From the NCBI GenBank assembly GCA_951406725.2, contig OX597816.1, forward strand, positions 88,660,001-88,724,000: a stretch of DNA of 64,000 nt. The letters run 5' to 3'. This DNA is from Octopus vulgaris (lineage: Eukaryota). Shown piece after piece: positions 33,270 through 40,202 of this stretch. Every line of letters begins with the position of its first letter. Position 1 is the first letter of the stretch. The notes beneath the pieces were generated by a model, which did no database searches, had not been told where the DNA came from, and saw only the letters and a list, made by a program, of their open reading frames with translations. Position numbers and translations under genes: made by a program.

Positions 33270-33998
33270 TACTAGAAGTCCAAATAATTCAAGGAACCAG
33301 ATTAAACGCTCAACAGCTCTGATTTACAACGCATTAGGTCCCCAGACGAAACTGTTGATTTACTGACAATTCTACAACTAAATTTTATCAATCTCCTGAC
33401 CACCATGCTTGGTCCTTAACCTCTATACATCCCTTATCTTTATATTTTTTTATATTTTGTTACATTTTTATCATGTTTTTTTACTTTTATTTTTATTTCT
33501 ATTTCTATTTTTACTTTATAACCTTATGCCTTTACATTTATTTATATTTCTTTATATTTCTTTATATTCTTTATACCCCCTTTACATCTCCTTATATCTC
33601 TTTATATCTTTATGCTCTACATTTTTATATTTTTCTATACTTACACTTTTTATACATTTTTTATCCCTCGTCCTGAATTCTCGCCCCTCCATCTTCACGT
33701 ATATACATGTATTTATTTATTTACATTACTTCAACATCCATTTTTCCTCATCCTACATTGAGAGAAGAAAGAGATGGACGCTTCAATTCTATGCTGCTGC
33801 CGCATTATGTCGTACGCGAATGGGAGGATTTGCATCCCCAACCAAGAATTTTTGATGTAACACATGTCCTTGTGGAAGCTGTTGTGCGCGGCTGAAGAAG
33901 GCCACAGACATACATTATGCATTGTTATAAATCTGTCTAATAAAGGCCCGAAACATATGTACCGCTGAATCCTTCGCATCATGTTTTTATTTTGATCA

Positions 33999-34002
<4 letters not shown>
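33270..34002 (+). mobile_element. PLE-type pLTR / 3' end remnant ending in (TA)n
   Basis: Pyrimidine-rich tract followed by a hammerhead and a TA run; the 5' boundary is uncertain. Confidence 0.55.
33888..33965 (+). ncRNA. Type I hammerhead ribozyme
   Basis: gcgg-CTGAAGA-a-ggcc...ggcc-c-GAAA-catatg-TA-ccgc: helix I gcgg/ccgc, palindromic helix III ACATATGT, GUA cleavage triplet. Confidence 0.8.
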
Positions 34003-36118: not shown

Positions 36119-36295
36119 TGGGTATTGTATTGCCAAACTTGGAAGAGGGACAGTTGTTCCAATAAAGGAGTTATATGTAATGACTATTATTTTTCATTGG
36201 TTTCTTATATATATGTGTATATATGTATATATGTATATATTTATATATATATTCATATGCATATATATTTCACTCTAGCACTTGTATATTTCAAA

Positions 36296-36360
36296 TGCTA
36301 CACTGATGATGAGAAATTAGTAAGTAAATATACTTTAATCTCGAAACGCGTATATGGTTA
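36296..36360 (+). ncRNA. Type I hammerhead motif with weakened helix I
   Basis: CTGATGA-t-gaga...tctc-GAAA-cgcg-TA; palindromic ACGCGT helix III; helix I has a mismatch and wobbles. Confidence 0.6.
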
Positions 36361-36518
36361 GTCAGAGTCGTGTAGATTCATTATTTTTATTCTTTTTGCT
36401 TACGTAAAAAAGTGTGTTACTGTCTGGGAAATTCTTACGGTAGTAGAAAAGGAATTTCTAAATTCGGTATGTGGTGAAGCAATTAGCCGACCCCCCACTT
36501 ATTATAACTATGTTTATA

Positions 36519-38280: not shown

Positions 38281-38447
38281 TTGAGAATAGTGTGATGCAA
38301 ACACATTTGAAGAAAATGAAAGCAAAAATGATATTTGGTTATAGTAAAATATGACCACTTGTGTACAAATTTATTACAGGTTAATATTTACCAGTGAAAA
38401 ATTCAGCAACAGAAATAGTAATTGAAATAATATACATATATATATAT

Positions 38448-39314
38448 ATATAATAATAAGAGTAAATAATTTCTATAAAGGCTTTTAAAAAAACCCCAAT
38501 TATTTACTGGTAGAATTCGGTATGTAAATATAGCCGATTACCGGCAGGAACTTCTGTAAAGTTCAGTATATATATTGTATATAAGAAAAAGGGACAGGCA
38601 AAACAGGTTGCTTGACCGCATACCGAAAAAATAGAAATAGCAGTCGAGAATGCTTATTTCTATCAAAGTTGGACTCCGGGCATGACAGACCCTGTAATTC
38701 ACATATGCAAAACAGAAGGAATAGATAACGAATACGAAGTCTGGCGGTTATCTGTGAACATCATGTTTCTGGATTATAAACATATTGAATATATATTCCA
38801 TATATATTTTTGATATATATTTCATATACATTGCATATATATTTCACATCCTTCTTCAGCACAGCTTTCCATTGAAAAAGATTTATCATAGATTTATCAA
38901 ATGCTACGTACCTCAAACCTTCTGACCATGCGAAATCAAAATATTTGAAGAAAGTGAGCTATTTCTATTTTTTCGGTATGCGGTCAAGCAACCTGTTTTG
39001 CCTGTCCCTTTTTCTTATATACAATATATATACTGAACTTTACAGAAGTTCCTGCCGGTAATCGGCTATATTTACATACCGAATTCTACCAGTAAATAAT
39101 TGGGGTTTTTTTAAAGCCTTTATAGAAATTATTTACTCTTATTATTATATTACTATTTGGATTTTTCACTCCCTTTGACAACCTAATTGTTCCCCATCTT
39201 ATGGAACTATTTTTGTAATGCGTATGGCAAAATTTTGGAGGGAAGATTTATGAATTCAAACGTCTATGTAGGTTTAGCTTTTGCTCACTTTCTTCAAATA
39301 TTTTGATGTCGTAT
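38448..39314. mobile_element. Hammerhead-containing element with inverted duplication and no recognisable ORF (PLE pLTR / retrozyme-like)
   Basis: 38448-38641 is the RC of 38958-39150 (one indel seen); 38928-38959 is the RC of 39283-39314; HHR lies in the spacer; TA runs at both ends. Confidence 0.85.
38752..38864 (-). ncRNA. Type I hammerhead ribozyme
   Basis: Minus strand ctgtg-CTGAAGA-a-ggat[AT-rich loop]atcc-a-GAAA-catgatg-TT-cacag: 5-bp helix I, GUU triplet. Confidence 0.75.
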
Positions 39315-40202
39315 ATATATATATATATATATATAGCAATTAAAGGTTCAGTGGAGATCAATCATTAGTTTTCGGCGTTATGGTGGGGTAAACAAAATTT
39401 ATCAACGATTTATACGATTCATTTTGGAGAAAAATACTGAAAAAAGAGAAGTGTGTTATGGGTGTGCAGTTACGCTATACGATATAACAGAGAAGTACTA
39501 TCTCTGATTTACATCGGAAGCTTGCAGTATCAAAACCGTCACATACTATGAATAAAGAGTATTTTTAAAACGGTGACGATTAGAAAGAACCTGAAAGAGA
39601 CTCGGTTATTGAATACTAGTAGAGTAAACCTATTTTAATCGGAATATCTTGTCAATGTTTACTAGCAAGATTTCAAAAGGTAATATAAGAAAATATATAA
39701 ATGGATTTGTTTCATCAAAGCAGAAATAAATCCATTACACAGAAAAAAATTAGTTAATTTTATGACGAAAATACAGCCTGTCTAACATATAATTCAACGA
39801 TGACTGTGACGGTAAGAATATCATCACAGATAAACAAGCAGCTGGGAAGAAGTTCAGGGATATATTCAGCAACTTCTAATTAACAAAAGTGTTGTCAGAG
39901 ATGCGACAGCATAGAAAATACTCGGTTACTCGCTGATTAGATTACAAAAGAAAAAAAAGACATCAATAAATCTATTTTGCACCCACCAACCACCTTCTGG
40001 ATGCTATAGGCTGTTTATCAACAACCTGGCTTTGTTCACGATTGCCATTCTGAAGTTATATACAATTAGTGATTGTATGTTCACTAAGGGTACACTATCG
40101 TTTGTGCATATATCCAGGAAACATTCTTTCTGGTTCTGCTTCTAATTTTAGTAGACACATTCTTTTTCTTTTGTTTGTAAGAATATAAGAATACCAACAA
40201 TG

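Follow-up and report, generated by a model that had tools for sequence, protein, structure and literature searches.

The window analyzed here is a 64,000-nucleotide (nt) stretch of the Octopus vulgaris genome (OX597816.1, 88,660,001-88,724,000), and the locus in question is an inverted pair of arms of a hammerhead-bearing repeat at its positions 38,448-39,314. We interpret this locus, with considerable though not full confidence, as a single recent insertion of a tandem repeat that is non-coding, 644 nt long per unit, and equipped with a hammerhead, i.e., a non-long terminal repeat (non-LTR) retrozyme, which was copied into (TA)n probably by the enzyme of a Penelope-like element (PLE) priming twice on one RNA, this RNA being likely a circle. 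As far as its sequence allows a classification, the unit is a non-LTR retrozyme, and its mode of insertion is that of PLEs. The genome searched for related copies comprises 2.80 Gb in 227 contigs, approximately 30 of them chromosome-sized, and is rich in microsatellites.

The first-pass annotation had combined the two arms into a ring of approximately 644 nt, including a C segment of 132 nt. Both arms were mapped on a natural tandem monomer from another array (L020), in which the minus-strand arm equals monomer positions 1-512 and the plus-strand arm positions 319-644 followed by 1-32 (Table 1). Since this natural monomer accounts for both arms, the predicted ring is a real unit, and the lengths given for it and for the C segment hold. 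The two copies of the A repeat (194 nt) are 99.5% identical and differ by a single homopolymer indel, as had been noticed, and the outer ends of both arms were rightly placed within (TA)n. The B repeat, described as 32 nt long, matches at 30 of 32 positions; one difference is internal (monomer 26), and the other concerns the final bases, which probably belong to the target (TA)n, the true end of the right arm then lying at monomer 29-32. The arms do meet at an AGCT, although this site is better described as a 2-nt GC microhomology of two arms that both start with GCT than as a palindrome.

Table 1. Features of the inverted insertion (positions in the window; monomer numbering of the natural unit)
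Feature	Position	Strand	Remark
Left (TA)n target	38428..38452	.	
Primary arm	38448..38959	-	monomer 1-512; 3' end at the main end site (512) of the family
A repeat, left copy	38448..38641	-	monomer 319-512
Motif common to related families	38608..38627	-	candidate binding site of the mobilizing protein
Type I hammerhead	38752..38864	-	predicted cut after GUU, between 38757 and 38756
B repeat, left copy	38928..38959	-	monomer 1-32
5'-to-5' arm junction	38957..38960	.	2-nt microhomology
Secondary arm	38958..39314	+	monomer 319-644, then 1-29/32 of the next unit
A repeat, right copy	38958..39150	+	
Right-arm copy of the common motif	38972..38991	+	
C segment	39151..39282	+	monomer 513-644 (132 nt), not in the left arm; predicted long-rod pairing with monomer 217-277
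B repeat, right copy	39283..39314	+	
Right (TA)n target	39311..39336	.	

A genome search with the spacer returned 923 candidates, the best 40 places being 98-100% identical and several of them lying at 644-nt spacing; exact 644-nt tandem repeats of the unit, which a search with the monomer was expected to reveal, are indeed present elsewhere. The recent date proposed for the insertion holds up. Motifs at four positions of the unit have 446, 461, 701, and 412 exact matches, whereas the reversed controls have none; the unit is therefore not a product of chance, since the 27-mer with 446 matches has 0 for its reversed control. The first 100 of the 701 matches represent 55 loci (hand count), and a family of roughly 385 insertions, as a lower bound, is suggested. 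Size variants of 644 and about 616 nt (the 616-620-nt subfamily) differ by one indel. The unit has a GC content of 0.33 and variable ends in (TA)n, and no LTR-type ends were seen (the primer binding site and polypurine tract were not searched for separately). On the circle, the longest open reading frame (ORF) starting with ATG has 43 aa and the longest stop-free frame 69 aa. No protein is encoded and no examined copy is fused to a PLE ORF, in agreement with the non-autonomous nature assigned to the unit earlier.

The hammerhead that the first-pass annotation had placed in the spacer is recovered as a fold at 38864-38752 of the minus strand, although Rfam did not detect it in the window at its gathering and E-value thresholds. 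Read along this strand, it consists of stem I CUGUG, the core CUGAAGA, A, a long AU-rich stem II, A, GAAA, stem III, GUU, and CACAG. Stem I is thus formed by CUGUG/CACAG; stem II occupies 81 nt and is opened by an A-A mismatch, and stem III is short and near-palindromic. The structure corresponds to a minimal type I hammerhead, for which self-cutting is predicted. A gapped-pattern search found 96 related hammerheads, and 29 of the first 30 were aligned with the window copy (L207 was omitted as a poor match). Among these 30 aligned sequences, 93% of cells are paired, two-sided changes occur in 8 of 9 pairs, and none of 500 shuffles scored as high, a value that is not a probability because the aligned hammerheads are related. 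Stem I, which was not fixed by the search pattern, shows several distinct pairings, and stems I and II co-vary across related families. Within the family the core is nearly invariant (about 150-175 copies), and consecutive units each carry a hammerhead, a single arm containing as many as 13 hammerhead sites. To judge from these alignments, the fold is under constraint.

Folded as a circle, the monomer reaches -159 kcal/mol, against -128 (sd 6) for 40 shuffles (z -5.1), with all three hammerhead stems in the minimum free energy structure, whereas the antisense strand reaches -126 kcal/mol and forms no hammerhead core. A long rod in this circular fold joins monomer 217-277 to the C segment. Changes in the rod among subfamily variants are mostly one-sided and therefore lend it no real support. 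The deletion behind the 616-620-nt subfamily (monomer 545-574) takes out an entire predicted side hairpin of the rod.

Insertion anatomy was mapped for 116 insertions (L082 had no copy and L154, which was cut, was replaced by L236), a sample in which C1-C4 and, in part, copies whose hammerhead is intact are overrepresented. Seventy-two are simple tail-out inverted pairs, 5 more are complex and contain the same inversion, 39 are apparently single-armed (some conceal a short piece in inverse orientation), and tail-in arrangements do not occur. With a tail-out inversion in two-thirds of the insertions (77/116), inversion is the usual form of the family and not a special event of the window locus. 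Three-fourths of the 3' ends (144/193) fall at two sites, monomer 512 (100 ends at 505-526) and 393 (44 ends at 388-403), followed by 9 ends at 356-362, 8 at 326-332, and 32 elsewhere; (TA)4 lies within 30 nt of 171 of them, and the 5' ends are scattered. Exactly one arm ends at 512 in 69 of the 72 simple pairs, and both arms do so in none, whereas 16.5 such pairs would be expected if the arms were independent (P 7e-9). Median arm lengths are 424 and 183 nt. Central joins, scored in 54 pairs, show an overlap of 1-5 nt in 26 cases, no overlap in 10, inserted bases in 12, and a longer overlap in 6. More than one-half of the arms (117/199) cross the hammerhead cut site, 32 of them at least twice, and 56 are longer than one unit. 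Because arms run across the cut site, the template was either ligated or uncut. Tandem or inverted arms, asymmetric ends, and a microsatellite target constitute an anatomy of the PLE type.

The arms of one insertion share a haplotype. Over 387 unmasked columns in 79 insertions, divergence is 0.41% between opposite arms, 0.72% between units of one arm, and 1.86% between different loci. All diagnostic columns agree in 32 of 35 informative loci, whereas agreement between loci is 75.6% per column; within arms, they agree in 1777 of 1780 pairs. Private substitutions at multi-copy columns number 74: 51 are confined to a single copy, 12 are present in every copy (7 of these spanning both arms), and the remaining 11 are found in a subset of copies. 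Gene conversion between arms may also have contributed to the shared haplotype. In loci with at least 4 segments, no variant is shared by a subset of units in 13 of 18 cases.

The first-pass annotation had combined a PLE-mobilized, retrozyme-like unit with a strand switch. A non-autonomous unit inserted in the PLE manner stands, whereas a single strand switch on the new cDNA fails at the window locus because some sequence is unique to each arm; a circular or multimeric RNA that was primed twice fits better. In the course of events proposed here, tandem copies would be transcribed, and monomers would be cut out by the hammerheads and ligated into circles. A PLE protein would then bind near the conserved motif and cut both strands of (TA)n. 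One strand would prime internally at monomer 512 and the other upstream, at 393, 360, 329, or elsewhere (29-32 at the window locus). Synthesis of both cDNAs would proceed backwards past the hammerhead site, in some cases over more than one round, and their ends would be joined via microhomology. Given PLE mobilization, a circle is clearly favored over a linear multimer as the template; homogeneous short arrays, the multiplicity of haplotypes, and the conserved ribozyme all speak for circles. In addition, assembled contigs of two public studies measure 674 nt (644 + 30; run X1) and 651 nt (a 621-nt variant + 30; run X5), resembling a closed assembly cycle if the runs are RNA, as we guess, a result that tandem DNA or RNA gives as well. 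Likewise, a join at the GUU site cannot prove a circle, since it is collinear with tandem read-through. A bolder version, in which a still-active retrozyme heads a clade of thousands of related hammerhead elements in the genome and the PLE enzyme primes both cut strands at two internal sites of one ribozyme-made circle, rolls round it, and joins the cDNAs head to head, is held tentatively, at slightly less than an even chance. If it were true, a retrozyme could be recognized by its structure, having no sequence in common with its helper.

Several observations weigh against a circular template or PLE mobilization. Cleavage may be slowed by the basal A-A mismatch of stem II and by a stem III of 3 bp; stem I has a predicted pairing of no more than approximately 0.4 in the circular fold and of 0.01-0.05 when a linear stretch of 1 kb is folded. 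At the predicted cut site, 5' ends accumulate weakly. A first sample yielded 0 of 130 ends there and was biased because it was selected on an intact cut site. A sample selected by motif had 6 of its 72 ends at monomer 201-208, two of them misplaced by internal similarity, which leaves 4 against approximately 2.4 expected from the local rate (28 stops in monomer 209-300, hand count). Genome-wide, 3 true breakpoints and one duplicated locus were found at monomer 204, against 1 at a control position. The arms of L068 derive from two subfamilies, so two RNAs must sometimes be used. Variants present in only some units (5 of the 18 loci with at least 4 segments) count against a single monomer circle, since such a circle gives none without later recombination; these five long arrays are mosaic. 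The main substrate of the purified Anolis Poseidon PLE protein was uncleaved RNA, and its hammerhead was protein-assisted and dispensable, according to the accessible part of that study (PMC11167929). Finally, comparison of the monomer with a young PLE of the same genome, considered below, found nothing beyond low-complexity AT similarity, and no canonical hammerhead was found in its pLTR (pseudo-long terminal repeat).

The rival that survives best, although we think it rather unlikely, retains the element and the enzyme and takes as template a linear, uncut read-through multimer transcribed from long genomic arrays, circles being at most a side product. The substrate preference just mentioned agrees with it, as do the same end asymmetry in the autonomous PLE of the genome, the internal heterogeneity of long arrays, and the compatibility of the window locus with an 838-nt linear template having a 32-nt overlap. 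Heterogeneous arrays should, however, yield mixed units, contrary to the 13 loci free of subset variants and to the near-complete agreement of diagnostic columns within arms. Few loci could moreover act as sources, because the median arms are so short. In L1 twin priming, two primings produce 5'-to-5' inverted arms with a microhomology join; the arms of the 644-nt family differ in overlapping widely instead of abutting (9 abutments in 54 pairs, against 12.7 by chance), a further point against a linear template, and in having no poly(A) tail. Array length as proof of rolling-circle copying was rejected, since long arrays carry mosaic variants.

A second rival, which we regard as improbable, holds that the unit is the pLTR of an unsampled autonomous PLE and its copies ordinary 5'-truncated insertions. 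The anatomy is as described for PLEs in the available sections of PMC8557442, and PLE diversity was sampled in part: a GIY-YIG search of the genome gave 6,136 candidates and 148 scored matches, many in 781-aa frames with reverse transcriptase (RT) and GIY-YIG domains and a cysteine cluster between them. Upstream of each unit there is nevertheless a previous unit, an inverted arm, or flank, and never a common coding region. In the family loci examined, no RT + GIY-YIG ORF is contiguous with the repeat. PLE or LINE (long interspersed nuclear element) fragments near some copies are separate insertions; those of PLEs near four insertions are not joined to the arms. In the pLTRs of 41 PLE loci, which represent part of PLE diversity, a covariance model detected no hammerhead of the family, and Rfam detected no hammerhead at all in 20 PLE loci.

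Far less probable as the general source of the inversions is a reaction in which a cDNA is primed once and then folds back on itself. Fold-back would account for the shared haplotypes, and the secondary arm lies inside the primary one in 38 of 69 pairs; the two arms start within 30 nt of each other in 15 of 54 pairs (5.1 expected), an excess which suggests that a minority of pairs are fold-backs. The other 31 secondary arms do not lie inside the primary arm, 16 being longer than it, and the window locus is among such cases; here fold-back is excluded by the C segment, present in the right arm only. An assembly inversion or chimeric read is hardly credible, as the two arms neither run in phase nor have identical sequences, the same form occurs at 72 loci with different junctions, and the unit is present in independent runs.

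A candidate helper, chosen by age and anatomy only, is a young intact PLE (L121:930-6172, L122-L137) with a 479-aa upstream frame lacking a Pfam match, a 781-aa RT-GIY-YIG frame, and a 456-nt pLTR. Its 16 copies have a median divergence of 0.7%. Inserted in (TA)n, they have two end sites with 40 nt between them and form tail-out inversions; L126 and L128 have the long end of the PLE on one side and an inverted short end on the other. The young PLE follows the same two-end rule as the 644-nt family. In the PLE loci sampled, which represent part of PLE diversity, no sequence common to the unit and an autonomous element was found. Other hammerheads, unrelated to this family, lie near PLE copies (L099:455/208, L129:1633, L133:1833-1907, L033:7933, and L098:45).

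The class to which the unit is assigned is established. The accessible sections of Cervera and de la Pena (2020; PMC7229834) define non-LTR retrozymes, report their circles in coral, mussel, and axolotl, and regard PLEs as likely helpers; the main text mentions neither octopus, cephalopod, nor inverted. Those of Li, Clavereau and Pollet (2026; bioRxiv 10.64898/2026.07.22.740005) link vertebrate retrozymes to PLE pLTRs and report in vitro cleavage of 1 of 9 dimers. From similarly partial views, PMC6155905 treats minimal and dimeric hammerheads, PMC6962438 counts 235 Rfam hammerheads in giant squid, and the octopus repeat annotation of PMC13282606 lists recently active Penelope-like families, with hammerhead, ribozyme, and retrozyme unmentioned in the portion available. 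A cephalopod retrozyme was not found in the literature; the supplements of PMC7229834 and of the 2026 preprint, as well as repeat libraries, lay outside the search and could hold such repeats. The octopus unit resembles animal non-LTR retrozymes in being a non-coding tandem unit of 33% GC with a type I hammerhead per copy, a strong fold, co-occurring PLEs, and size variants due to one indel (644 and about 616 nt). It exceeds the 170-400 nt reported for invertebrate retrozymes and falls within the range given by the 2026 preprint (51-972 bp), as far as the accessible parts indicate. It further differs in its short stem III (as in PLE variants), its 81-nt stem II, and its spread as young, two-armed insertions that number in the hundreds, are dispersed, and end at fixed sites, a form absent from the available descriptions; circles and cleavage are known for animal retrozymes and predicted for the 644-nt unit.

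As for PLEs, their insertions may be tandem, inverted, or tailed (PMC8557442), and the purified Poseidon protein cuts and extends both DNA strands, with two internal start sites (PMC11167929), according to the available parts of both papers. With endonuclease-containing (EN+) PLEs of RT-zinc finger-GIY-YIG order (Neptune/Nematis type) and with Poseidon, as these sources present them, the unit shares partial tandems, a 5'-truncated copy in inverted orientation, two end sites (extension being confined to one end), AT-rich or microsatellite targets, and internal priming. Unlike EN+ PLEs it has no ORF, its main end sites are approximately 120 nt apart instead of 30-40, and the pLTR of the young PLE is not homologous to it. 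Non-autonomous PLEs of Chlamys (MRC1), as far as described in PMC8557442, likewise form multicopy head-to-tail insertions, whereas the 3' end of MRC1-type elements resembles that of the autonomous partner, and hammerheads are lacking in most of their clade.

Related elements are widespread. A degenerate 20-mer motif common to related families has 3,506 matches in the genome, and a clade of related non-coding hammerhead elements (L174-L230, L241-L250; 96 matches to one hammerhead pattern) is often tail-out in (TA)n. In the window itself, an older related-family copy occupies 36295-36490 (+), with a hammerhead (33.9 bits, model R1) followed by the motif (36463-36482) and (TA)n. A type I hammerhead of another family (33884-33967, +; stem I GCGG/CCGC, stem II GGC/GCC) stops approximately 35 nt short of (TA)n at 34002. 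Elsewhere, L042:885-8976 (C1:120.155-120.163 Mb) is a 616-nt-variant array of 13 units with mosaic variants, among them a G-to-A change of the core in 4 of the 13 hammerheads, and L279/L280 (C10:103205858-103205931) carries an internal tandem duplication of 51 nt whose junctions begin at the predicted cut site. A 2.7-kb repeat with a related hammerhead (L242) was rejected as a duplication that includes flank and holds no ORF.

The retrozyme class and its link to PLEs are already in print; what is new is the cephalopod host group, the large unit, the odd hammerhead, and a measurable two-priming footprint. Retrozymes are extended to a cephalopod, with a hammerhead variant that Rfam misses. The accessible literature treats retrozyme movement and the circle as its template as proposed and not demonstrated. 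The several hundred young insertions have defined priming sites (512, 393), obey a strict two-end rule, and show haplotypes shared between arms. Because these young insertions and an intact PLE of similar age occur in one genome and an in vitro PLE assay exists, the identity of the helper and the choice between circular and linear templates are directly testable, and the family could serve to examine whether circular RNA is the route by which animal retrozymes spread.
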